From: a virus
Taxonomy: Duplodnaviria > Heunggongvirae > Uroviricota > Caudoviricetes
Reading direction: 5' to 3' (one strand)
Virus record (IMG/VR): IMGVR_UViG_2703718794_000007
Length of the DNA stretch: 39,067 nt
The notes under the pieces were generated by a model. It was not told where the DNA came from, searched no databases, and saw nothing but the letters and a program-made list of their open reading frames with translations. The first letter of the stretch is position 1. The number at the start of each line of letters is the position of its first letter. Of this stretch, positions 2,897 to 39,067 are shown in pieces. The position numbers were made by a program, and so were the translations under genes.

Positions 2897-3086
2897 AGCA
2901 CTTGCTCCTTTTCCGGAGAGGCGCTAACCTTTCACTTGCTTAGGGTAGACGGTTAGGGCCTCGGTTAAACAAAAGTGTTTTCCGGGGCCTTTCCACATCT
3001 GGCCTTCGGGTATTCCCTCCGACCATCAGCCGAAAGGCACCCGCGCGTAATCTATCGCTTTTTTGTTACTCCGGCAATTCTGCTTG

Positions 3087-3347
3087 TTAATTCTTAGGTA
3101 AAGGCAAACTCATCTGATTGTTTCCCCTGTGTGAAGCTGGTAGCTCATGCCACGGGATACCTTCTGAAGAGTGAACGCCGGAGGCGTGTTTCGATGTGAA
3201 TTTATGGAAAGCTTCCAGTGTTGAGAAGCATACGCCGCATTCCAGATTGTTACACTGGTAATACTTTTGCCGCACGGTGTTTGAATCATTTTCCGGACGA
3301 CTTGTGCGGATACGGGCAGATGCGCCACAAAGCGGACAACGGAACAT
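3087..3347 (-). CDS. ogr: Ogr/Delta-family zinc-finger late transcription activator
   Basis: 86 aa; MFRCPLCGASARIRTSR...YYQCNNLEC matches the P2 Ogr C-x2-C...C-x4-C pattern. Confidence 0.85.
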   Translation of the reverse strand: MFRCPLCGASARIRTSRPENDSNTVRQKYYQCNNLECGVCFSTLEAFHKFTSKHASGVHSSEGIPWHELPASHRGNNQMSLPLPKN

Positions 3348-3538: not shown

Positions 3539-4561
3539 ATGGGAAGAGATATAACGCTGTACCCTAAAAAAGCAACTAGAAACGAACTTAAAAATTACCT
3601 TGAAAATTTAGGTTTTAAAAGGTGTAAACATTTGTGGGAATGGCCCCAAGGAACGTTGAATTACTCTTGGTTTGATGATACGGACTTCAAATCTACAGAT
3701 GGAGTTTCGGCTGATATATATCCTGTTTCAAATGACGAACTACACATATCTGGTAATAAATGGGCATTGCATGTGCGTAATTTATATAGCGCTAGTTGGC
3801 ATGATGTAAAAATGCTTAATGATGTTCTAAAAGGCGCACGGAGTCTTTTTGGTGGAACACTTATAGGTGATTATGGGAAAAATAGGTACGCTCCTCTATG
3901 GAAGGATTCTAGTAGTCCGATCAGTCGTGGCATTTCTTCAATATTTAATCATGTCCATCATGAGATTTCCGCTGTTAAACATGCCTTACCTGAACCTTCT
4001 ATTAAATTAAACCTACCGGAAGATGGCGGCTTATTCGAATACTTTGATTACATGCAATGTATGGATCCCAGTAGAGTTATATATAATGGATTAGTACCTT
4101 TTGCGGTTGCTATGTTTGAATATTTTTTCTCTAGAGCTTTTCAAATACTTATAAAGTACGATCCTTTCGCAATAGCAAAAAGAACATCGTATAAGCAAAA
4201 AGTTGATTTTGATATTCTGCTTGAGATAGAGAAAGGAAATATTTCAATAGAAAGTGTTATTGCAAGAAATTACACTTTTCAAAACTTAACCCACCTAAAC
4301 AAAGCATATAAAGAGTGGCTGGATATAGATGTGAGAGCGATTCTTTATAAGAAAAAAAGAATTGGAAAATCAGTTGATTTTCTTGAGAATCGAATTTCTG
4401 AAATCATACAATATAGACATGGGATAGTTCATCACTTTGAGTTGGATAGGACCTTAAATCGGGATGGATATATTCATATATTAGATGCGATAGAAAAAAG
4501 CATAATTGAATTTATCCATTACATAGAAGGCAAATACAAATTTAAATTAAATGCGTATTAA
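3539..4561 (+). CDS. Hypothetical cargo protein; possible C-terminal HEPN-like Rx4H motif
   Basis: 340-aa ORF, AT-rich, opposite strand to the flanking ogr and D; C-terminal YRHGIVHH; no family recognised. Confidence 0.65.
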   Translation: MGRDITLYPKKATRNELKNYLENLGFKRCKHLWEWPQGTLNYSWFDDTDFKSTDGVSADIYPVSNDELHISGNKWALHVRNLYSASWHDVKMLNDVLKGARSLFGGTLIGDYGKNRYAPLWKDSSSPISRGISSIFNHVHHEISAVKHALPEPSIKLNLPEDGGLFEYFDYMQCMDPSRVIYNGLVPFAVAMFEYFFSRAFQILIKYDPFAIAKRTSYKQKVDFDILLEIEKGNISIESVIARNYTFQNLTHLNKAYKEWLDIDVRAILYKKKRIGKSVDFLENRISEIIQYRHGIVHHFELDRTLNRDGYIHILDAIEKSIIEFIHYIEGKYKFKLNAY

Positions 4562-4681
4562 GCAATCAACCTTACATAGGGATGACAAAGTCCGCTTCTG
4601 ACACGGAGCGGACCGTCGTTTATGTTTAATTCTATACTGTAAACTTGCCAGTTTAAGTCTGAGCTAATATGTCTAAGTTGC

Positions 4682-5791
4682 TCACTCTGTTTCTGCTATC
4701 CATTCCGGGATTTTTGCCTCAAGCTCAAGCTGTGTGGTAAAGCCGCTGTTATCAATGGTGTGCTCGGCTTTTGCAATAATCCAGTCCTGATTATCAATCT
4801 CGCTTTTAAAGCCTGTTACCGTGCCATGCATTTCGGGGTAGAGTTCTGCGCGTCCGCGTGCCAGCATGATGGAGAATGATGCGGCTCCGCGTTGTAGCTG
4901 CTGCCACTTTGCCGCCGCTGCGCGTCTTGCTGCCTGCTCGTTCTGATAAGTCTTGCGTAACACAAACACATTGCCTTCCGCGCCTTCCATATAATCACCT
5001 TCACGGCTGCTGCTTTTCTCCTTTTTGGGTTTTGGCGGTTTGCGGCGTTTCACGCTGACTTTTTTCTTTTTCCCGTAATTAAGATCAAGCCAGTAGGCGC
5101 GTACACCTGTATACGCCTCGCGGTCAGCAATGCGGAACTGATGGCGATCGCCACTGCTGCGTGTAATGGCGAACGAGGGCAACGGCTGGCCCTGTGCGTT
5201 CACGCCACCACCTGGCATGATGAATAACAGATTGCCGCTTTTTACCGTGGTGATTGCGCCCAGCATTTCCGCCATGCGCGTAAGGAAGGACATGTCGCTT
5301 TCTTCGGTCTGGTCGGCGTGGTCGATTTCGATATCCATCAGCATTTCGCTGATTTGCGGTTTCAGACCATACCGATGAGCGATGGCGGATACCACACGCT
5401 CAACGGTCACATCATGCCAGGACACTTCACGTTTAACGTTAAATTCATCCCGAAAATCTGCGCTTCTGGCTGAAACCGTCAGCCTGTCCGGCGCTCCTTC
5501 GTGAGCGATTTCATCAACAATGTAAGTGCCTTTTTCTGTCAGCGGTTCTCCTTTCCAGCCAATGAGAACCGTCAGGCGCGCGCCCCGTGGCGGTAGCTGC
5601 AACTGACCATCCGCATCATCCAGCGTGATGGTGAGCTGGTCCGCTTCAAATCCCCGGTTGTCGGTCAGTGACAGGCTCATCAGGCGCTCTGCCACGCCGG
5701 ACAGTGTTTCCCCCTCCGCGAGAATATCAAAATCCGGCATTTTCACGGGGTCTGTGCTCTGACTGAGCAATTGCATGGTGGTATCGGTCAT
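4682..5791 (-). CDS. D: Tail/late control protein D (gpD)
   Basis: ORF 4682-5923; start placed at the in-frame MTDTTMQLL methionine with a GGGAGGG RBS; gpD family by memory. Confidence 0.85.
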   Translation of the reverse strand: MTDTTMQLLSQSTDPVKMPDFDILAEGETLSGVAERLMSLSLTDNRGFEADQLTITLDDADGQLQLPPRGARLTVLIGWKGEPLTEKGTYIVDEIAHEGAPDRLTVSARSADFRDEFNVKREVSWHDVTVERVVSAIAHRYGLKPQISEMLMDIEIDHADQTEESDMSFLTRMAEMLGAITTVKSGNLLFIMPGGGVNAQGQPLPSFAITRSSGDRHQFRIADREAYTGVRAYWLDLNYGKKKKVSVKRRKPPKPKKEKSSSREGDYMEGAEGNVFVLRKTYQNEQAARRAAAAKWQQLQRGAASFSIMLARGRAELYPEMHGTVTGFKSEIDNQDWIIAKAEHTIDNSGFTTQLELEAKIPEWIAETE

Positions 5792-5948
5792 CTGTTCCCT
5801 CCCTGTGCGGCATGGTCGCATGTGCGTGCGTAGGGGGTTACTGCTTTTTGTTGTCGCCGTGGCGGGAGAACGGCGCAGGGGTGAGATTACGCGCGTGGTG
5901 GGTGATGATTGTTGCCGAATCATTTAACGGATACAAGGGGCTGAAGCT

Positions 5949-7133
5949 ATGAGTGAAACTCGTTTTCATGGTGCCCGTGTTACGGAAAATACCGACCTGG
6001 TAACAGCGATTAACGATGTTGATTCCAGCGTTATCGGTATCGTGGCAACGGCGGATGATGCGGACGCGAAGCTGTTCCCGCTGAACAAGCCCACACTGCT
6101 GACCCGCGTCAATGACGTGCTGGGAAAATGCGGAACAACGGGGACGCTTTATCGTGCGCTTAAGGCCATCGCAGACCAGGTGAGCACAAAGGTGATCGTC
6201 GTTCGCGTGGCTGAACACAAAGAAGAAGACGGTAAGACGCAGGATCAACTGGTTATCGGTGGTTCTGAGGATGACGGCAGCTATACGGGGATGTATGCGC
6301 TGCTTGTTGCAGAGCAGGATGAAAGCATCGGATACCGTCCGCGTATTCTGGCCGCGCCGGAGCTGGACACGGAGGCTGTAACAAAATCCCTGTGCGTGAT
6401 TGCGGGTAAACTGCGCGCGTTTGTGTATGCCTCATGTCATGGCTGTGACACGATGGCTGATGCGATTACCTACCGCCAGAAATTCAACGAACGTGAGGTG
6501 ATGCTCTTATGGCCGGACTTCATCGCCTACAACCCGAAAAGTGGCAAAAACGAAACGTTCCCCGCGCCTGCCTATGCGTGCGGCCTTCGTGCGTACATTG
6601 ACCATGAGCAGGGATGGCACAAATCACTCTCCAACGTTCCGGTTAAGAATGTGCTGGGGATGTCGAGGCATGTGTTCTGGTCGTTGCAGGCCGAAGACAG
6701 TGATGCCAACAGCCTCAACAACAAAGAAATCACGACCATTATTCGTCGCAACGGGTTCCGCTTCTGGGGCAACCGCACACCGGAAACGAACGCCTACATC
6801 TTTGAGGTGTATACCCGAACCGCACAGGTGCTGGCTGATTCAATTGCGGAAGCGCAGTTTGAAACCATCGATAGTCCACTGACGCCTGCGAACGTGAAGG
6901 ATGTTATCAGTGCCATCAGGGCAAAACTGGATTCACTGGTTACTGCCGGGAAACTGATTGGCGCGGAGTGCTGGTATGACATCGTGGATAACAGCACCAC
7001 GAATTTACGTCAGGGGCGTGTGCGTATTCGCTACAAATATACGCCCGTTCCTCCGCTGGAAGACATGGAGCTTTACCAGTCGTTTACTGATGAATTCTTT
7101 GGTCCCGCATTTGCGGTGCTGGGAGGTGCCTGA
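5949..7133 (+). CDS. FI: Tail sheath protein FI
   Basis: 394 aa; FPLNKP, GWHK and FRFWGNRT motifs shared with P2 gpFI. Confidence 0.9.
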   Translation: MSETRFHGARVTENTDLVTAINDVDSSVIGIVATADDADAKLFPLNKPTLLTRVNDVLGKCGTTGTLYRALKAIADQVSTKVIVVRVAEHKEEDGKTQDQLVIGGSEDDGSYTGMYALLVAEQDESIGYRPRILAAPELDTEAVTKSLCVIAGKLRAFVYASCHGCDTMADAITYRQKFNEREVMLLWPDFIAYNPKSGKNETFPAPAYACGLRAYIDHEQGWHKSLSNVPVKNVLGMSRHVFWSLQAEDSDANSLNNKEITTIIRRNGFRFWGNRTPETNAYIFEVYTRTAQVLADSIAEAQFETIDSPLTPANVKDVISAIRAKLDSLVTAGKLIGAECWYDIVDNSTTNLRQGRVRIRYKYTPVPPLEDMELYQSFTDEFFGPAFAVLGGA

Positions 7134-7645
7134 TGGCTGTACCAAAACATCTTCGCTTTTTTACGCTGTTTGTGGATGGTGAAAACGAAGTGGGTAAGGT
7201 GACGTCCGTCACCCTGCCTAAACTGACGCGCAAAACCGACAGCTACCGGGGTGGTGGCATGATGAGTGCGGTAAGTATTGATCTCGGCCTGGACGACTCC
7301 GCGCTTGATGCGAGCTTTGTCATGGGGGGCGCAGTTCGTGAGCTGTTCCTGAAGTATGGCGGCACGATTGACGGCACGCTACTGCGTTTTGCGGGTGAAT
7401 ACTACACCGATGCAGAAAGCGACCTGTATGAAGTCGAAATGCGCGGACGTGTGACGGAAATTGATATGGGGGAAGCCAAACAGGGCGAAGCCACATCACA
7501 CACTTATGCCATTAAAAACACCTACTACAAGCTGAGTGTTAACGATCGCCCGTTGTGGGAGATTGACCTGCTGAACTTCATTTACCGGAAGGACGGCAAG
7601 GACATTGTGCCCGATCGCATCCGTTCCGCGCTTGGGCTTGGCTGA
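7133..7645 (+). CDS. FII: Tail tube protein FII
   Basis: 170 aa directly after FI with ATGA overlap; P2 FII size and position. Confidence 0.85.
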   Translation: MAVPKHLRFFTLFVDGENEVGKVTSVTLPKLTRKTDSYRGGGMMSAVSIDLGLDDSALDASFVMGGAVRELFLKYGGTIDGTLLRFAGEYYTDAESDLYEVEMRGRVTEIDMGEAKQGEATSHTYAIKNTYYKLSVNDRPLWEIDLLNFIYRKDGKDIVPDRIRSALGLG

Positions 7646-7699
7646 TAAGTAATATGCAGGCGGCGCAGTGCGTCGCCTCTGACTGAAAGGAGTTTCCTG

Positions 7700-8065
7700 A
7701 TGAAAGAGACGAAAAACATCGATACCGAAAACACGGTAGTTACTGACACTGTGAAAGAAACCAGTGAGCGTGGCGTAAAACTTACCCAACCAATTGAGCG
7801 AAGCGGCGAAAAAATCACGTATGTGGAGATCACCGGGGCTATTGAGCAGGCTGGATCTCTGCGAGATTTGTCGCTGTCTGATGTGCTGAGTCTGAAAGCG
7901 GAATCCATGTTTACGCTGCTGTCACGCGTGACATCACCGCGACTGGATGAAGTGACGATCAAAAAAATGGCATCCCGTGACTTTATTCAGTTATGTGTGG
8001 TTGCCGTAAATTTTTTGAGCGGTGCGGACTCTGGCGGGAAGAACGAACAGGCGACGGAAGCCTGA
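7700..8065 (+). CDS. E: Tail assembly chaperone E
   Basis: 121-aa ORF between tube and tape-measure genes, with slippery site near its 3' end. Confidence 0.8.
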   Translation: MKETKNIDTENTVVTDTVKETSERGVKLTQPIERSGEKITYVEITGAIEQAGSLRDLSLSDVLSLKAESMFTLLSRVTSPRLDEVTIKKMASRDFIQLCVVAVNFLSGADSGGKNEQATEA

Positions 8066-8229
8066 TCACGGTTGTGTGCTTTGAGCACATAGAAGACTTT
8101 GTGGCAGATATTGCCGTTATTTTTAACTGGTCGCCCGCCGAAATCTTCATGATGACGCCCGGCGAAGTGGTTAGCTGGCGTGAGCGGGCGGCACTTCGCA
8201 GCGGGAATGCAGACAATGAAGACTCTTGA
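7700..8229 (+). CDS. E+E' product of a programmed -1 frameshift
   Basis: TTTTTTG at 8011-8017 (AAT TTT TTG in the E frame); the -1 frame continues as FFERCGLW... to a stop at 8227-8229; mirrors P2 E/E'. Confidence 0.6.
8011..8017 (+). promoter_or_regulatory. Slippery heptamer TTTTTTG for the E/E' frameshift
   Basis: Heptamer at the point where the E and E' frames overlap. Confidence 0.55.
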
Positions 8230-11023
8230 TATCCGGGTCGCTTTCAGCGCCGTTGACAGGCTAACCCGACCTGCCGAAAACGCACGCCGCCTGATGAGGC
8301 AGTTTGGTGACTCCATCCAGCGAACGCAGGGGGCGATCAAAAATCTCGAGCGTCAGGCGCGTTCATTTGAGCGCGCCCGCGACGCTGTCAGTAAAGCGGA
8401 TGCGGGTATCGTGAAAGCACGACGCCAGCTTAACGCCCTTAATCAGTTACAACGCACGGGTACAGTGCTCAGCGAAAAACAACAAAAGCTGATGCAGCAG
8501 TTAAGCACCCGGCTTGAACGCCTGAATGAATCGCGCACACGGGAAATTCAGAAAATGCGGGAGCTTGGCGGAGAGCTGAAACGCCACGGCATTTCCCTGA
8601 CAGGCAGCGATAACACCATCCAGCAGGCCATCAGACGCACCGAACAATACAACAACCAGCTTGAACGCGAACGGCAGGCGCTTGCGCGTGTAACGCGGGC
8701 GCGTGAGCGGTATTCGCGCGCGCAGGAAACAGCGGGAAAACTGAAAACAGGTGGTGCGCTGGCAATTGGTGCGGCAGCGGCGGGCGGCTATGCTGCCGGG
8801 CGTTTTTTGCAGCCTGCGATCGGGTTCGGGAAAGAGATGTCCCGCGTTCAGGCACTGACGCGAATCGACAAAAACAGCCCGCAGTTTAAGGCGCTGCGTG
8901 AGCAGGCGTTAAAACTTGGCTCTGAAACGCAGTTCACCGCAGGCGATGCCGCCAGTGGGCAGGCATTTCTTGCAATGGCTGGCTTCACACCGCAGGCCAT
9001 TCAGGCTGCGCTTCCGGGCGTGCTGAGCATGGCAACGGCTGGCGGTATGGACCTTGGCGAGACGGCGGATATTGGCTCAAATATCCTGACGCAGTTCGGC
9101 CTCTCCGCTGACCAGATGGACCGGGTCGGTGACACGCTTACAGCAGCGTTTACCCGTACTAACACTGACCTTCGCGCGCTGGGCGAAACCATGAAATATG
9201 CAGGTCCGGTGGCGGGTAAGCTGGGAATATCGCTGGAGCAGGCCGCAGCGATGGCGGGCGTGCTGGCGAATATGGGTATCAGAGGGAGTGATGCCGGGAC
9301 GGCAATGCGTGCCAGCCTGGCTCGTCTGGCATCACCGCCAAAGGCGGCAGCAGAGGCGCTGAAAGAGCTTGGCGTGTCTGTCTCGGATGCCGGGGGCAAA
9401 ATGCGCCCGATGGAGGATGTGCTGGCTGACCTTTATAAAGCTACCCGCAAATACGGGGAAGTTGACCGGGTATCGTTCTTTAAGGACATTGCCGGAGAAG
9501 AGGCTTTCACATCATTTATGGCCCTCGTTGATGCGGCAGGTGACGGCTCCTTACCCAAACTGAGAAAAGAACTTGAAGGCGCGCGCGGTGAGGCTGAACG
9601 CACGGCAAAGGTTATGGCCAACAACCTTGACGGCGATCTGAAATCACTCAGCAGTGCATGGGAAGGGTTGCGCATCCGCATTGCAGATCTGATTGACGGT
9701 CCGCTGCGTTCTGTCACGCAGTGGCTCACGCGTGTGGTATCAAAGGTGACGGCGCTGGCGCAGGCCCATCCGGTACTGACGCGCCAGCTACTGATAGCAG
9801 GCGGTGCGTTGCTGGCAATGACTGCAACGATTGGCTCGTTGTCGCTGGTTATTGGGGTGCTTTACGGGAAGCTGGCCACCCTGCGTCTTGGTTTTGACAT
9901 TCTTACCCGGTCAATGAATGTTGTCAGGGTGTTGCCTGCGCTGTGGGGAATGGTGACGGGTTCCGTTTCTTTACTGGGAGGTGCTATCGGGGCGCTGTTC
10001 AGCCCGGTTGGTCTTATCGTGGCTGCGCTTGCCGGAGCTGCCGTTCTTATCTGGAAATACTGGGATCCCATCAGGGCATTTTTTGCCGGGGTGTTCAGCG
10101 GGATTATGGAAAGGCTGACCCCGTTGCGCGAAACCTTTGAACGGTTTGGTCCTGTTTTTGACGCAATCGGAAGCGGGATCAGCCAGGTGTTTAACTGGTT
10201 TAAATCGCTGCTGTCACCGATGGAATCCAGCAAGGAAACGCTGGATAAATGTACCAGTGCTGGCGAGATATTCGGTAACGTTCTTGGCGGTGCGTTACAG
10301 CTTGTTCTGACACCTGCAAAAATGCTACTGGATACGCTGGCGTGGATACTTGAAAAACTTGGCGTCCTTCCGGATGAAGCGGAAAGGGCGCGCAAGAAAA
10401 TCGAAGACGCACAGCGTGCGGCCATTCTTCAGGACAAGGTTGCCTTGCTTCAGGGGGACCTTGCGAAAATCAATCTGCCGAAGCCTGTGGAAAATGGCAA
10501 TGGCACCGGAGGTGATAAACCCGAAGACAACAAACCGCTCACAGACAGCAATACCGGGACGCTACGCAGACTCAGCAAAATTGCTGATAACACAGGTAAG
10601 CTGGTTGATGAGACGAAAAAACGCATTGGCCCCGGCGATATTGTCTTTAAGAACCTGCCCCGCGCACTTGCTGTTCGTGGGGAGTGGCAGGAGCGGAAGA
10701 TTGCGCAGGTCAGTAAGCCTGCCCCCGCAATTAATATCACACCCGTGGTCCCGGCTCCGCTGCCTCCGGCGCTGGTCCCTGTTGTTGCGGCCAACTCCCG
10801 CCCGGTGGCGGAGGCCATACGATCTCCAGTGGCATCAGTTCCTGTAACTTCCCGTAACCGGGAGCCTGTTGCCTCCGGATTTGGTGGTGAAATTCATGTT
10901 CATCTGCATAACGTTGTTACGCAGAATCCCCGCGAACTGGCGAAACTGGTCGGTGAAATGGTCAGGGCAGAAATGGAACGGCGCGCCCGTGCCGGGCGTG
11001 GCAGTTTTTACGATAAAGATTGA
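8207..11023 (+). CDS. T: Tail tape measure protein T
   Basis: ORF 8180-11023 (947 aa from a GTG); coiled-coil N-terminus and Gly/Ala-rich hydrophobic middle; first ATG at 8207 overlaps the end of E'. Confidence 0.85.
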   Translation: MQTMKTLDIRVAFSAVDRLTRPAENARRLMRQFGDSIQRTQGAIKNLERQARSFERARDAVSKADAGIVKARRQLNALNQLQRTGTVLSEKQQKLMQQLSTRLERLNESRTREIQKMRELGGELKRHGISLTGSDNTIQQAIRRTEQYNNQLERERQALARVTRARERYSRAQETAGKLKTGGALAIGAAAAGGYAAGRFLQPAIGFGKEMSRVQALTRIDKNSPQFKALREQALKLGSETQFTAGDAASGQAFLAMAGFTPQAIQAALPGVLSMATAGGMDLGETADIGSNILTQFGLSADQMDRVGDTLTAAFTRTNTDLRALGETMKYAGPVAGKLGISLEQAAAMAGVLANMGIRGSDAGTAMRASLARLASPPKAAAEALKELGVSVSDAGGKMRPMEDVLADLYKATRKYGEVDRVSFFKDIAGEEAFTSFMALVDAAGDGSLPKLRKELEGARGEAERTAKVMANNLDGDLKSLSSAWEGLRIRIADLIDGPLRSVTQWLTRVVSKVTALAQAHPVLTRQLLIAGGALLAMTATIGSLSLVIGVLYGKLATLRLGFDILTRSMNVVRVLPALWGMVTGSVSLLGGAIGALFSPVGLIVAALAGAAVLIWKYWDPIRAFFAGVFSGIMERLTPLRETFERFGPVFDAIGSGISQVFNWFKSLLSPMESSKETLDKCTSAGEIFGNVLGGALQLVLTPAKMLLDTLAWILEKLGVLPDEAERARKKIEDAQRAAILQDKVALLQGDLAKINLPKPVENGNGTGGDKPEDNKPLTDSNTGTLRRLSKIADNTGKLVDETKKRIGPGDIVFKNLPRALAVRGEWQERKIAQVSKPAPAINITPVVPAPLPPALVPVVAANSRPVAEAIRSPVASVPVTSRNREPVASGFGGEIHVHLHNVVTQNPRELAKLVGEMVRAEMERRARAGRGSFYDKD

Positions 11024-11029
11024 GGAGTC

Positions 11030-11524
11030 ATGGCCATGATGATGATCTACGGCATGTTTGTTTTTGAGCTGCGCACGCTGCCGCATCAGCAGTTACAGCA
11101 AAACAAAAGCTGGCGGCATGTGAAAAATGAACGCGTTAACCGTTCAGCAAGCTGGCAGTATATCGGTGCAGGTGATGATCGCATCGTTCTTTCTGGTGTG
11201 CTTTATCCTGAAATTACAGGTGGCGAAGTGTCGCTGTCGCTGCTGACCACGCAGGCGTATACAGGACGACCCTGGCCTTTGATTGATGGCGTCGGGCAGA
11301 TTTACGGCATGTATGTCCTGACCGGAACGAATACGACCCGTTCCGAGTTTGATCGCTACGGTAAGGCGAAAAAGATAGAATTTTCACTGACTCTTGAACG
11401 CTGTGATGAGGATTTGCGGGAGCGCCTGCAATCCTCATCGTTCAGCGATATGCTGTCCGGCTTCAAAGATAAAGTGACATCATCCCTTAACAGCGCGGCC
11501 AGTTCAGTTAAAGGGCTGTTCTGA
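11030..11524 (+). CDS. U: Tail protein U
   Basis: 164 aa; similar to P2 gpU including YPEITGG. Confidence 0.85.
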   Translation: MAMMMIYGMFVFELRTLPHQQLQQNKSWRHVKNERVNRSASWQYIGAGDDRIVLSGVLYPEITGGEVSLSLLTTQAYTGRPWPLIDGVGQIYGMYVLTGTNTTRSEFDRYGKAKKIEFSLTLERCDEDLRERLQSSSFSDMLSGFKDKVTSSLNSAASSVKGLF

Positions 11525-11686
11525 TTTAATGCTGGCCACTCATACCTGGTAATAAGTGGCCAGTCTTAACACTCACCATTTGATTGCACCCGTGTTGACG
11601 ATTTGTTACTGGATATCAGACACGCTGGATAGCCAGTAGAAACATACCATTAAAATTATTACAATAATTGGCCACATGATTATCTT

Positions 11687-12249
11687 ATGCTAAATAATAG
11701 AGATATGAATATTAATGAACTTAAAGATTGTATTCACTATGAAGTAATCGGTAGCGAGCGTCCTTTCTCTTGGCGAAAGGCAATTGTTCGCGCAATAAAA
11801 CATAGAAGGGTTCGTTATTTATTTTGGTGGCGCATAGCCAAATACTTTTTGATAAAGGCGGATACTGTCGGAAGATTGCGGGGAAAATAGAACGTTTCAT
11901 TCTTGATAAATATAATGTAACAGTCCCTTTAACTGTAAATATAGGGAAAGGCTTTGATATTTCTTATCTCAACAGTGTTGTTATCGGTCACAAAGTAACA
12001 ATCGGTGAAAATTGTTCAATAAAACCAGGGGTAACTATTGGGCTACGTGGTGATTTTAATGATATGGATATTGTTATAGGACATAATGTGACCATTGGTT
12101 GTAATGCCACCATTCTTGGTGGCAAAGTGCGTATAGGAAATAATGTCACAATAGGTGCTCATGCATTGGTATTGCATGATATTCCTGATGATTCAACATT
12201 CATCACTAAATTTCAGTCTGAAGTTATCTGCTCGTCCTCCCGTACATAA
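11687..12249 (+). pseudogene. Hexapeptide-repeat (WcaB/CysE-like) sugar O-acetyltransferase split by a frameshift
   Basis: ORF 11687-11890 carries the N-terminal YLFWWRIAKYF-type segment and ORF 11824-12249 the hexapeptide VIG/TIG repeats in another frame; AT-rich. Confidence 0.6.
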
Positions 12250-12836
12250 CCCTGATTCATCAGCTCTGGCCATACGATATCCGGAGCTGTACTGGTGTCA
12301 ATTCGACTCACTAATACTCTGTATTTTCTCCAGGAATCCAGTTGTGAATTTTCCTCGTTTGTTGCTATTTCAAGATTAACTGCATCCTGCAGAATTGCGA
12401 TGTTATCTGTTGCCTCCTGGATCAACCTTGCTTTTTTCTCTTCCGCTTCTCGTATCCGAAACAGTTTTTCTGCTTCCTCATCCTTCACCCAGGATACGCC
12501 GTCCCACCTCTGATACTCCCCTGCTGGCGACAACCAGGTGACATTCTCTGGTAGCGGTCCGAGTTCAGAAATAAACAATGCGTCCCCCGACGCCACGTCA
12601 TAGACCGTTTTACCACGATGGTCTTCAACAATATGCCACGATGCATCATCACTGTTGAAAACAGCCACGAAGCCAGCCGGAATATCTGGCGGTGCAATAT
12701 CGGTACTGTTTGCTGGCAGACCTGTATGAGGCGGAATGTATGCGTCACCTTCACCAATAAATTCATTAGTTCCGGCCAGCAGATTATAAATTGTTATGGT
12801 CCGTGGTTGTTCACTCATTCTGAAATCCATGTTCAC
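12213..12836 (-). CDS. Tail fibre assembly chaperone (gpG/Tfa family)
   Basis: 207-aa ORF downstream of the fibre genes; C-terminal [12 protein letters not shown] motif is typical of Tfa. Confidence 0.8.
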
Positions 12837-19287: not shown

Positions 19288-19555
19288 CTTTTGCAATATC
19301 GTTGCGTAGCTGTTCACGTCTGGCCTCTCCGTCCTGATTTCGCTGTTGATTTTCCACGCGGAGTTGCGCCAGCACCTGCTGCATATCCTGTACCCCGGTG
19401 CTGATGATATTCAGTGTGTCGACGGTACTTTTCAGGGCGCTGGCCTGCGCTTCGTTTCTGGCGTTCTCCCGGCCCAGCGACCACGACAGACGCATGGATG
19501 TTCCCCATGCGGCAATCAGAAGGAAAGCGACGCCTAGCGTGGGCCAGAGCTTCAT
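19148..19555 (-). CDS. Inner-membrane spanin (LysB/Rz-like)
   Basis: ORF 19148-19699; from MKLWPTLGVAFLLIAAWG it has an N-terminal TM then coiled coil; ATGA-coupled to the endolysin. Confidence 0.65.
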   Translation of the reverse strand: MKLWPTLGVAFLLIAAWGTSMRLSWSLGRENARNEAQASALKSTVDTLNIISTGVQDMQQVLAQLRVENQQRNQDGEARREQLRNDIAKDECAHALPDARFSDRLRRHAERATASAVSPAYTADADHTGNASPLP

Positions 19556-23821: not shown

Positions 23822-23975
23822 AGTTTTTGCCCCTCTGACTGGTTCTTCAGTCATGATGGCAAAGCGTAACAGGCTGATACAAAGGGCTTTTGTTGTAAGA
23901 AAACAGTCAGAACAGAGGGTTAAGGAGAACAGTTTCGCGCGCGGGTAATCTTCCTGTAATTACTCAGGGGGAGCA

Positions 23976-27919: not shown

Positions 27920-28438
27920 TCATTCGAAACTGGCAAGAATCTGTTCTCGAACAGAAGATTTCATCGTTAACCCACGATCTAGGAAAAATTGGAAATGCAT
28001 TAAGGCTTGTTGTTTGTGGATAAGTCTCCTGTGCACAGCCTCTTGAAGTAGCCCTCCGTGGCGGGCGGCTTTTACACCGCGTTCCGCACACGTTTTATAA
28101 ACCGCATTATCCGCCGAAAGACATGTTGCATCATGTATTCTCGCGTTAACAACGCAGCTTATGTCCGCATACTTCAATGCTCTCCTGCGATTTTTTATCT
28201 CAGCCATTTCAATAAAATGTTCAGGTTCGTAATCATTGGTGAAATTGTATGGAAGTTGCAGGCGTGTAAGCTGTTCCTGAACATCAAGATTGTATTTAGC
28301 TTTTAGTTCCTCGCAGACATAGGGGTCAATCCACACACCACCCGGGTAAATTTGCCAGATAAGATCTAAGCATTTACCTTCGTAAAAATCAGACAGTACA
28401 TTCGTATCGATAACACATCTGGGGCATTCAAACGGCAT
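27920..28438 (-). CDS. PIN-domain protein (putative toxin/nuclease)
   Basis: ORF 27920-28471; from MPFECPRCVIDTNVLSD it shows the PIN-type N-terminal Asp motif and a later HDAT acidic motif; start overlaps the upstream gene. Confidence 0.7.
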   Translation of the reverse strand: MPFECPRCVIDTNVLSDFYEGKCLDLIWQIYPGGVWIDPYVCEELKAKYNLDVQEQLTRLQLPYNFTNDYEPEHFIEMAEIKNRRRALKYADISCVVNARIHDATCLSADNAVYKTCAERGVKAARHGGLLQEAVHRRLIHKQQALMHFQFFLDRGLTMKSSVREQILASFE

Positions 28439-29573
28439 CCTCTCCGGCCTCCTGTTCGTCGTACCATTCATCCAGAAGATTGCTGAGAGCTTTTCTGTCT
28501 AATTCTAAAAGTTCAGATATGAAGGTTTCCGACGCGGAACCGGCTTCCCATGCTTTACGCGATAAGACGGTTAGGCGGCCTTTATAATTTAGTGCTTCCC
28601 TAATGGGATTTGGCTCGTGTCTCTTCCAACCTTTACGATTGGCGGTTGCCCATAGGTATCTAGTGTTTTGTTGATTAATTAAATTACATTTACTAAGACG
28701 ATCGATGATGCAAGTGGCTGATACTCTGAAAATGCTTTTTAGTCTAAGGACGGTTTCCTCATACGCCCATCCACCACCTTGCATGACGAATTGTTTTCGC
28801 AATGCGCTTTCTGGTACCAAAAAACAAGCAGCAAAGTGATTAGCAACTTTTTCTTCCGGTGAAATTGCTTTGCCATTGGTTTTATAGCTTTTAGCAGGGC
28901 CATCATACTCATCACGGTGGAAGATAAGATGAGCATATTCATGGCAAATACTGAAGATTTGACGTTCTATTGAAATGCTATCGTGAACATTTACATAAAT
29001 CGCGGTACCGTATTTGTTCGAAAACGCAGAAAATCCGAATACCATCCCTTTATCAGTTTCTTCGCGATTGAACGGGATTACTCGAATATCCGATGCTTCC
29101 AAAATGGCTACAATGTCACCAACGCAAGTAGCGTTTCCTATACCGAGACGGAAACGTTCTTCCATAGCCTTATCTTCGACTCTTCGCAAATCTTCTGCTT
29201 TGGCGGTAAAAATAGGCATTGAGTTAGGAAGATCTTCTGGCAAATTAGCATCTGCAGCTTCCTCAATTGCATTGATATTTTTTAACTTTTCAATCAACTC
29301 ATTGCGAAGTTTGGCATCCAACAAATCCGGACTATCTGCTCGCATTGCAAAACGAAACTCGCCATCATCTTGCTCATAAAAATACCCGATAGGCTTATCG
29401 AAAATCTTGCAGAGCATGATGAGTTGGGTAACGCTTGGGACGCCTAGCGCCTGCTCAAACTTACTGTAGGTTTGACGAACAACACCGATCGCATCTGCGA
29501 CGGCGCTTGCACTCATTCCTGCGTCGTTTCTGGCCTGAACCAAGCGTTCTGCTATACGCTGTTGAATGTTCAT
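28428..29573 (-). CDS. XRE-family HTH fused to an ImmA/IrrE (COG2856) zinc metallopeptidase
   Basis: 381 aa; N-terminal helix-turn-helix (MSASAVADAIGVVRQTYSKFE) and HEYAH zinc-binding motif mid-protein. Confidence 0.75.
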   Translation of the reverse strand: MNIQQRIAERLVQARNDAGMSASAVADAIGVVRQTYSKFEQALGVPSVTQLIMLCKIFDKPIGYFYEQDDGEFRFAMRADSPDLLDAKLRNELIEKLKNINAIEEAADANLPEDLPNSMPIFTAKAEDLRRVEDKAMEERFRLGIGNATCVGDIVAILEASDIRVIPFNREETDKGMVFGFSAFSNKYGTAIYVNVHDSISIERQIFSICHEYAHLIFHRDEYDGPAKSYKTNGKAISPEEKVANHFAACFLVPESALRKQFVMQGGGWAYEETVLRLKSIFRVSATCIIDRLSKCNLINQQNTRYLWATANRKGWKRHEPNPIREALNYKGRLTVLSRKAWEAGSASETFISELLELDRKALSNLLDEWYDEQEAGEDAV

Positions 29574-37966: not shown

Positions 37967-38062
37967 GGCCAGAAAACTGGTTAGACCTGCTTTTTGTCTG
38001 GTCTGATTATTGCTGGAAAGAGGCTGGAGAAATTGTAGAGCGGTTCATTGGAGGGCTTCGTA

Positions 38063-39067
38063 ATGTCGATTAAGAAGCTCGAAGATGGTCGTTATTTGCT
38101 GGACATCAGGCCGAACGGACGCAAGGGAAAGCGCGTGCGTAAGGTATTTGACAAAAAATCGGTAGCGGTGGCCACTGAACGCTACATCATGGCGAACGCT
38201 GAAAAGCGGGAATATATACAGGGCTACCGTGATCGTCGAACGCTAAATGATTTGCTTGAGTTGTGGTGGATGTATCACGGCCAGCACAGGCGTAAGGCGG
38301 AAGAAGACCGAAAACAACTGCGCAACATAATTAATGAGCTTGGCGCTGATATGCAGGCTGTGGATCTTGATAAGCTGAAAATTATCGCGTGGCGTTCTCA
38401 AAAGATAGCTGAAGGATTGAAACCGTCATCTGCTAACAGGTACATGAATCGGTTATCCGGAATGTTTACCGTGCTGAAAAAAATAGGTCTTTGGGATGCA
38501 GAACATCCAGTAAGGGGAATTTCTATTCTTTATGTATCTCCACGAGAAATGGCGTTCCTGTCACAGAAGGAAGTGGCGCTATTGCTCGATACACTGGAGG
38601 GCGACTACTGGCGTGTTGCGCTTTTGTGTTTAAGCACAGGGGCGCGCTGGAGTGAAGCTTGTAAGCTTCGTGGTGAACAGATAGTTCATAACCGTGTAAC
38701 GTTTCTTGAAACCAAAAATGGCCGGAAGAGAACAGTGCCAATTTCGCAGGCAGTTTGTGAGGCGATCAAAACCAGAGAAACAGGCAGCTTGTTTGAGGTG
38801 AAGTACCGGGAATTCTGCCTGGCGCTGAAAAGAGTTAAGCCCGATTTACCAAAAGGCCAGGCTGCACATGTGCTGCGGCATACGTTCGCCAGCCATTTTG
38901 TGATGAACGGAGGAAACATTATTGCGCTTCAGAAGATTCTTGGTCACGCAACCATTCAGCAAACAATGGCATATGCGCATTTTGCACCGGATTACCTGCA
39001 GGATGCGGTGGCCCTTAATCCGCTGAAAGGTGGCGTAAGTGTCCACGCAGTGTCCACGGGGGATTAA
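38063..39067 (+). CDS. int: P2-type tyrosine integrase
   Basis: ORF 38048-39067; MSIKKLEDGRY...LSTGARWSEA...HVLRHTFASH...QTMAYAHFAPDYLQDA matches P2 Int; stop at the last base. Confidence 0.9.
   Translation: MSIKKLEDGRYLLDIRPNGRKGKRVRKVFDKKSVAVATERYIMANAEKREYIQGYRDRRTLNDLLELWWMYHGQHRRKAEEDRKQLRNIINELGADMQAVDLDKLKIIAWRSQKIAEGLKPSSANRYMNRLSGMFTVLKKIGLWDAEHPVRGISILYVSPREMAFLSQKEVALLLDTLEGDYWRVALLCLSTGARWSEACKLRGEQIVHNRVTFLETKNGRKRTVPISQAVCEAIKTRETGSLFEVKYREFCLALKRVKPDLPKGQAAHVLRHTFASHFVMNGGNIIALQKILGHATIQQTMAYAHFAPDYLQDAVALNPLKGGVSVHAVSTGD

Follow-up and report, generated by a model that had tools for sequence, protein, structure and literature searches.

The window, as we call the whole stretch of 39,067 nucleotides analysed here, derives from a P88-like prophage of Escherichia coli (genus Xuanwuvirus, family Peduoviridae) in which the tail genes FI to U, together with their promoter region, are inverted relative to phage P2, so that gene D points away from FI. 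Very probably, the window belongs to a P88-like lineage in which the segment from the F promoter to U has a fixed orientation, the reverse of that in P2, as a result of what would be a single old inversion, with a putative bidirectional late promoter, pF/pD, between FI and D. The layout itself is real but not unusual: it is an ordinary arrangement that recurs in published phages and across many genera of Enterobacterales.

Gene order relative to P2 and P88

Gene identities were assigned from the map of open reading frames, PHROGs and Pfam. The features of the inverted block and its flanks are the following.

3087-3347, minus strand: ogr-like late activator (Pfam Ogr_Delta, 52.4 bits, cut-off 26.3; zinc finger CX2CX24CX4C)
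3539-4561, plus strand: low-GC cargo gene of 340 aa between D and ogr (GC 38-41%; absent from P88)
4682-5791, minus strand: gpD, baseplate hub or "late control D" (phrog_52, E=1.6e-164; Pfam Phage_GPD), on the strand of ogr and of O to G
5792-5948, no strand assigned: divergent D/FI intergenic region of 157 bp, putative bidirectional late promoter
5949-7133, plus strand: FI, tail sheath (phrog_23, E=2.4e-125), with ATG at 5949; 45% identical to P2 FI
7133-7645, plus strand: FII, tail tube (phrog_55); 42% identical to P2 FII
7700-8065, plus strand: E (phrog_103)
7700-8229, plus strand: E+E' via a -1 frameshift at T TTT TTG (8011-8017), with the -1 frame open to 8229
8216-11023, plus strand: T, tape measure (phrog_28, E=5.5e-217), start adopted from the P88 annotation
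11030-11524, plus strand: U, tail protein, the last gene of the inverted block (phrog_76, E=8.2e-75); 46% identical to P2 U
11531-11564, plus strand: hairpin right after U (inverted repeat; -22.1 kcal/mol, z = -2.0)
11705-12250, plus strand: frameshifted hexapeptide-repeat (LbetaH) acetyltransferase, cargo beside tfa (Pfam Hexapep)
12213-12836, minus strand: tail fibre assembly gene (tfa/G; phrog_105, E=2.1e-94), the end of the V to G operon, convergent with U

The Ogr/Delta protein has the four cysteines of its zinc finger and is 41% identical to P2 Ogr, and gpD is 49% identical to P2 D, its start codon (5791-5789) being preceded by GGGAGGG. Beyond tfa, the minus strand carries the remaining tail-fibre, baseplate, lysis and head genes as far as O. 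The plus strand carries P and Q, and the early region and int lie at the right end of the window.

In the P2 record, O to S, V to G, FI-FII-E-E'-T-U-D and ogr are all located on one strand; the original prediction, made from the letters of the window, was right in describing FI-FII-E-T-U-D-ogr as collinear in P2. When 26 P2 proteins were compared with the window by tblastn, the strand was opposite to that in P2 for all except FI, FII, E, T and U. The window thus corresponds to the reverse of the P2 map, with FI, FII, E/E', T and U (5949-11524, plus strand) inverted relative to it, and D, ogr, O to G, int and A retain the P2 orientation relative to one another. This comparison bears out the proposed placement of FI to U on the plus strand with D, ogr and the V to G and O to X genes on the minus strand. 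Gene orientation being a deterministic property, chance plays no part in this result. The divergence of D from FI across the 157-bp gap and the position of accessory cargo next to tfa (the Hexapep gene at 11705-12250) are confirmed as well.

The window and P2 have in common the gene set of the P2 F operon (pF-FI-FII-E-E'-T-U-D) and ogr, at protein identities of 30-49%, the -1 frameshift heptamer for E+E', the location of ogr after D, and the presence of accessory cargo after the tail fibre assembly gene. In P2, however, the seven F-operon genes form one operon on the strand of O to G, in which the stop codon of U overlaps the start of D, whereas in the window FI to U are inverted, and D is a separate gene with a ribosome-binding site of its own. 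Hence this is not the collinear F operon of the P2 type: FI to U are on the plus strand, D is on the minus strand, and the start of D is 157 bp away from FI. A different rearrangement, in another clade, has been described in Stenotrophomonas phage Smp131, where tail genes are redistributed among late operons and the putative TGT-N12-ACA promoters are kept (PMC3931495); we compare it with the window on the basis of its description.

The closest phage matches of the window are all Xuanwuvirus-type records, including Escherichia phage P88, at 94-98% identity. The blastn comparison with P88 yields 7 blocks, all collinear on one strand at 89-98% identity, which cover replication, head, baseplate and tail genes. 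A single alignment of 6,858 bp with 98.5% identity (window 11529-4672) spans U to FI, the D/FI junction and the entire D gene. In the RefSeq annotation of P88, the genes U, T, E', E, FII and FI are on one strand, E' being annotated separately, and D is on the other strand across a 157-bp gap; the window has this P88-type layout (U-T-E-FII-FI on one strand, D divergent across about 155 bp). Gene order and strands are identical genome-wide in the window and P88 (Xuanwuvirus P88, NC_026014 / KP063541), and the layout is shared by the P88 relatives P884B11, 500465-2, 520873, 503458, PhiR44_2, Chuche and Citrobacter PhiSM. The D to U DNA of P88 and these relatives is 94-98% identical to that of the window, and the 157-bp D/FI gap is likewise the same.

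Distribution and age of the layout

That the block was simply placed in the wrong orientation during assembly of the window was suggested solely by the difference from the P2 map. This explanation is hardly credible, given that the junction is covered on both sides by one alignment with P88 and recurs in 13 Xuanwuvirus-type phage records and, at 95-99% identity, in 1,356 complete E. coli genomes, and that the U-side junction, with matching cargo, is found in 136 genomes. This sample's own reads apart, misassembly is effectively refuted.

For the survey of E. coli, 1 kb of sequence with the D/FI junction in its middle served as the query; it is intact, mostly at 95-99% identity, in the above 1,356 of the 5,426 complete genomes. 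The U-side junction in the 136 E. coli genomes is followed by the window's own cargo. In other E. coli prophages and in P88, the similarity ends at window position 11529, 5 nt past the stop codon of U, which marks the border of a variable cargo or tail-fibre region. The proposed edges of the rearrangement were accordingly placed correctly: positions 5792-5948 are the D/FI gap, and the similarity to P88 ends at 11529.

A more sensitive blastn search detects the divergent D/FI junction in other phages at 66-72% DNA identity, namely Enterobacter phage phiT5282H (Novemvirus), Klebsiella phage 3LV2017 (Reginaelenavirus) and Klebsiella phage ST16-OXA48phi5.4 (Reipivirus), as well as in many Klebsiella prophage-derived records and a fragment of Serratia phage KSP20. 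The layout thus spans four Peduoviridae genera and Serratia phage KSP20, and represents the usual state in several ICTV genera. The arrangement had been presented as an anomaly, a status that it loses because reference P2-like genomes, P88 among them, show the same orientation as standard.

To assess the depth of the layout, we used one GTDB genome per species and an alignment of D proteins; the best 80 of 423 loci, all from Enterobacterales, were classified by tblastn of FI and U. Among these best 80 of 423 loci, 58 have FI divergent directly upstream of D and come from more than 25 genera of Enterobacterales, including Salmonella, Citrobacter, Enterobacter, Klebsiella, Kosakonia, Serratia, Pantoea, Erwinia, Pectobacterium, Brenneria, Edwardsiella, Hafnia, Yersinia, Morganella, Providencia, Xenorhabdus and Photorhabdus. 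These 58 are all the loci listed at roughly 61% or greater identity (best segment) to the window D, and they show a single orientation. Another 19 of the 80, at no more than 54% D identity, have U collinear upstream of D, as in P2; two of the remaining loci are of the P2 type on inspection and one is unscorable.

A second alternative is a recent, strain-level or switchable inversion, mediated, for example, by a DNA invertase of the Cin/Gin type or by recombination between inverted repeats. Invertase activity does exist in the lineage, given that directly beside U both P88 and PhiSM have a gene for a DNA invertase together with a tail-fibre segment that can be inverted. Unlike P88, however, the window has no invertase next to U according to the ORF map and Pfam, and there are no inverted repeats at the ends of the block: the best pairs in an inverted-repeat search, 14-27 nt long with 74-100% complementarity, are scattered, and none pairs 5792-5948 with 11525-11686. 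Nor was a second orientation found among the relatives compared, so that the hallmarks of invertible segments of the Gin/Cin/Hin/Pin type are missing. The junction is held in one piece in 1,356 of the 1,384 E. coli genomes with any junction match, relatives with 52-98% FI identity among the best 80 of 423 GTDB loci are uniform in orientation, and the D/FI gap has evolved conserved promoter-like elements of its own. All this makes a recent or switchable inversion very improbable. Of the three readings originally offered, only the lineage-specific arrangement stands; recent inversion and misassembly both fail in view of P88 and PhiSM, the 1,356 genomes, the more than 25 genera and the lack of repeats.

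The P2 order is probably ancestral because it is kept by the more distant D relatives and by P2-like phages of Burkholderia, in which D, U and T are collinear (PMC3091744); the inverted order then probably marks a deep clade inside Enterobacterales. One old inversion is the simplest reading of this pattern and the most economical history, as judged from the distribution of gene orders. The two breakpoints of such an inversion would have been located ahead of the FI promoter and at the boundary between U and D. The event would have severed D from the F operon and set it beside the activator site of the FI promoter, where D would have needed just a -10 element and a ribosome-binding site.

The D/FI gap as a candidate bidirectional late promoter

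In this layout, D would need its own promoter within the 157-bp gap because the minus-strand DNA upstream of it consists of about 6 kb antisense to FI to U. The relevant elements of the gap are listed below.

5811-5816, minus strand: -10-like hexamer GACCAT of the putative D promoter, predicted start near 5805
5850-5871, no strand assigned: Ogr-type dyad GTTGT-N12-AGAAC (TGT-N12-AGA at 5852-5869, centre 5860.5)
5904-5909, plus strand: -10-like hexamer GATGAT of the putative FI promoter, predicted start near 5916

The Ogr/Delta consensus is TGT-N12-ACA (PMC3931495). In late promoters of this class, the centre of the dyad lies some 55 nt ahead of the transcription start, and both the activator and the alpha subunit of RNA polymerase are required. 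Exact matches to it number 7 in the window, against 9.2 expected, and none is in the D/FI gap; with one mismatch allowed, the 170 matches, against 180 expected, are uninformative. By itself, the strict consensus lacks the length to be useful, and an extended motif and comparative anchoring were therefore required. Perfect matches to the extended motif, GTTGT-N12-AGAAC, occur at just two places in the window, the D/FI gap (5850-5871) and the 154-bp O/P gap (23892-23913). A third copy with one mismatch (19463-19484, minus strand) is located inside a lysis gene, at no sensible distance to a gene start, and was dismissed as a chance match. The dyad in the D/FI gap is imperfect, with AGA in place of ACA in the FI-proximal half, one mismatch from TGT-N12-ACA. 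In the homologous gaps, TGT-N12-ACA is present in 33 of 61 loci and TGT-N12-AGA in 24 of 61.

When the gap is aligned across five phage lineages, the spacer proves to have diverged except for a TTGTTGT half-site, an A.A.C half-site, the CGCGCG box and a pair of hexamers. With 59 distinct gap sequences anchored on the dyad, the information content peaks over the dyad and, to either side of it, over positions 44-49. In a stricter count of 56 distinct gaps, the pattern nAnnnT begins exactly 44 nt away from the dyad centre in 93% on the FI side (median at other offsets, 4%) and in 86% on the D side (median at other offsets, 2%). The sequence of the hexamer differs among gaps, with GATTAT, GAATAT and CAACAT towards FI and AATCAT, AACTAT and GACGAT towards D. 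Because the 56 gaps are homologous to one another, the conserved spacing reflects purifying selection and does not amount to independent recurrence.

Mechanistically, the nearest precedent for such a promoter is, by analogy, the P2 pair pP/pO. In the P2 record, pP and pO share one annotated activator site (3057-3087), and their mapped starts, 3016 and 3127, lie 55.5 nt on either side of the dyad centre. In P2 pP/pO and in the D/FI gap alike, one dyad occupies the middle of an intergenic region of some 155 bp. Because the D/FI hexamers start 44 nt from the centre, the predicted starts fall 55.5 nt from it, which is the pP/pO geometry; the distance between these starts is 111 bp, and each has a weak -10 hexamer at -12 to -7, as in pP/pO. 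The two cases differ in the locus (P/O versus D/FI), in the half-site (AGA in the window versus ACA) and in that the D/FI promoters are predicted from sequence.

The gene for the cognate Ogr/Delta activator is present in the window, its Pfam Ogr_Delta match scoring above the cut-off, and because an Ogr-type site is a dyad, one site could serve both promoters. We suggest, with somewhat better than even confidence, that the inversion turned the Ogr dyad of the FI promoter into a second bidirectional late promoter, pF/pD, with a mirror geometry conserved in the deep enterobacterial clade. This single dyad would serve two back-to-back late promoters, one reading FI-FII-E/E'-T-U and the other reading D. 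Two features speak against this model, namely the imperfect dyad of the window and a predicted D leader of no more than about 14 nt.

Alternatively, the layout could be equally real and old, with D dependent not on the shared dyad but on an independent, Ogr-free promoter or on read-through. The degenerate FI-proximal half of the window dyad would fit this possibility, as would the ordinary promoter of P2 ogr just after D, which indicates that the region can hold Ogr-independent promoters. A sigma-70 scan that found no promoter in the D/FI gap could also be cited for it, although this null result is not evidence either way because activator-dependent promoters have poor -35 elements. Read-through would have to traverse about 6 kb antisense to FI to U, however, and the conserved position of the D-side hexamer exactly mirrors that on the FI side, as in P2 pP/pO. 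Moreover, D encodes a structural baseplate protein that is required late in infection. We therefore regard transcription of D independently of the dyad as unlikely, compared with the shared pF/pD promoter.

If the pF/pD promoter is real, it would be a natural experiment in which one dyad bound by Ogr/Delta activates RNA polymerase on both faces outside pP/pO, and thus a second natural test case of orientation-independent activation by zinc-finger activators of the Ogr/Delta class. This putative promoter is the mildly new point of the present analysis and would explain how D stays under late control after leaving the F operon.

Published phages with the layout and their variable flanks

In substance, the layout is already known: at least two published phages, P88 (papers from 2017) and PhiSM (2019), show it in their public records. 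P88 is reported to be inducible and to lyse E. coli strains (PMC5285337), and Citrobacter PhiSM is a temperate phage that is spontaneously released and forms plaques (PMC6456863). Because these phages are inducible or plaque-forming, the P88-type layout is functional and gives viable phage. The words inversion, orientation and rearrangement are absent from the P88 paper (PMC5285337), and gene order is not discussed in the PhiSM paper (PMC6456863). We found no explicit published account of the inversion, and a literature search on KSP20 returned nothing relevant. The layout is a reliable marker that distinguishes P88-type from P2-type prophages, and annotators should not call it an assembly error; if the proposed history is correct, it would also be a simple synapomorphy for dividing Peduoviridae.

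Differences between the window and P88 are found in the integrase, which is 72% identical over a short stretch, and on both flanks of the D to U segment. On the D side, the 340-aa cargo gene of the window is missing from P88, whose alignment jumps from window position 4672 to 3383. This gene matched no PHROG or PADLOC entry, with only a sub-threshold match to HEPN_RiboL-PSP, and PADLOC and PHROGs run on the cargo genes flanking the block returned no assignment. On the U side, the stable hairpin at 11531-11564, located where the conservation stops, is a possible terminator without a U tract. Beside U, P88 carries the DNA invertase and an alternative tail-fibre cassette, whereas the window has the acetyltransferase gene, which is disrupted by a 1-nt deletion at about 11844 and is present as an intact coding sequence of 181 aa in E. 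coli 5283.

Accessory genes within the prophage

At three places, the P88-like prophage carries the following genes:

3539-4561, plus strand: 340-aa gene of low GC content (38-41%), between the gpD gene D and the late activator gene ogr, on the strand opposite to both
11705-12250, plus strand: hexapeptide-repeat (LbetaH) acetyltransferase cargo gene, adjoining tfa
27920-28471, minus strand: neighbour overlapping the following gene, with a weak PDC-S70 match
28428-29573, minus strand: 381-aa protein matching the PADLOC RmrA models (E=2.8e-35)

Together, the overlapping genes at 27920-29573 make up a candidate anti-phage system; they fall within the variable stretch that separates Q from the replication genes. 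In the majority of the related GTDB loci (a sample with D relatives, one genome per species), ogr directly follows D. The 340-aa gene that separates D and ogr in the window is missing in P88 and lies within the region matched by the related phage 500465-2. Searches of its product against PHROG and PADLOC gave no match, and the sole match, to HEPN_RiboL-PSP, is below threshold (E=1.6e-4); this gene may represent defence or abortive-infection cargo at the D/ogr insertion point. The deletion of a single nucleotide near 11844 (AAATACCTTT to AAATACTTT) splits the acetyltransferase gene into two frames, and the counterpart of this gene in E. coli strain 5283 is an uninterrupted 181-aa CDS; the split gene is either a pseudogene or the result of a sequencing error.

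An additional dyad copy in the lysis region

A copy of the extended, Ogr-type dyad (GTTGT-N12-AGAAC) with one mismatch (GTGGTCGCTGGGCCGGGAGAAC) is present at 19463-19484, on the minus strand, within the LysB-like lysis gene. The 137 bp preceding R show no obvious dyad, so this copy may act as an internal late promoter from which the R to G tail genes are transcribed; alternatively, it may have arisen by chance.

Database records with discordant descriptions

One of the GTDB loci, L008, lies on a 226-kb contig (NZ_JBQPOM010000071.1) labelled as 'Vagococcus sp. WN89Y', a Firmicute. The proteins of its D/FI/ogr region are 96-99% identical to those of the window prophage, and its D-ogr interval holds the same insertion; assembly contamination or mislabelling is the likely cause. 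According to PMC6456863, the tail of the Citrobacter phage PhiSM virion is long, non-contractile and Siphoviridae-like, yet the sheath gene is among those, along with the D, tube and tape-measure genes, over which the deposited genome (OR565851) is 96-98% identical to the window. The deposited genome and the published morphology assignment do not fit each other.

The ends of the window

Beyond ogr and hok, positions 1-2685 lack similarity to P88, are partly of low GC content, and include:

1-996: unassigned 331-aa ORF terminating exactly at the window edge
1264-2157: VasI-domain protein (type VI secretion)
2162-2494: zinc-ribbon protein

At the other end, the integrase (38048-39067) is unlike that of P88, which suggests an attachment site other than that of P88.
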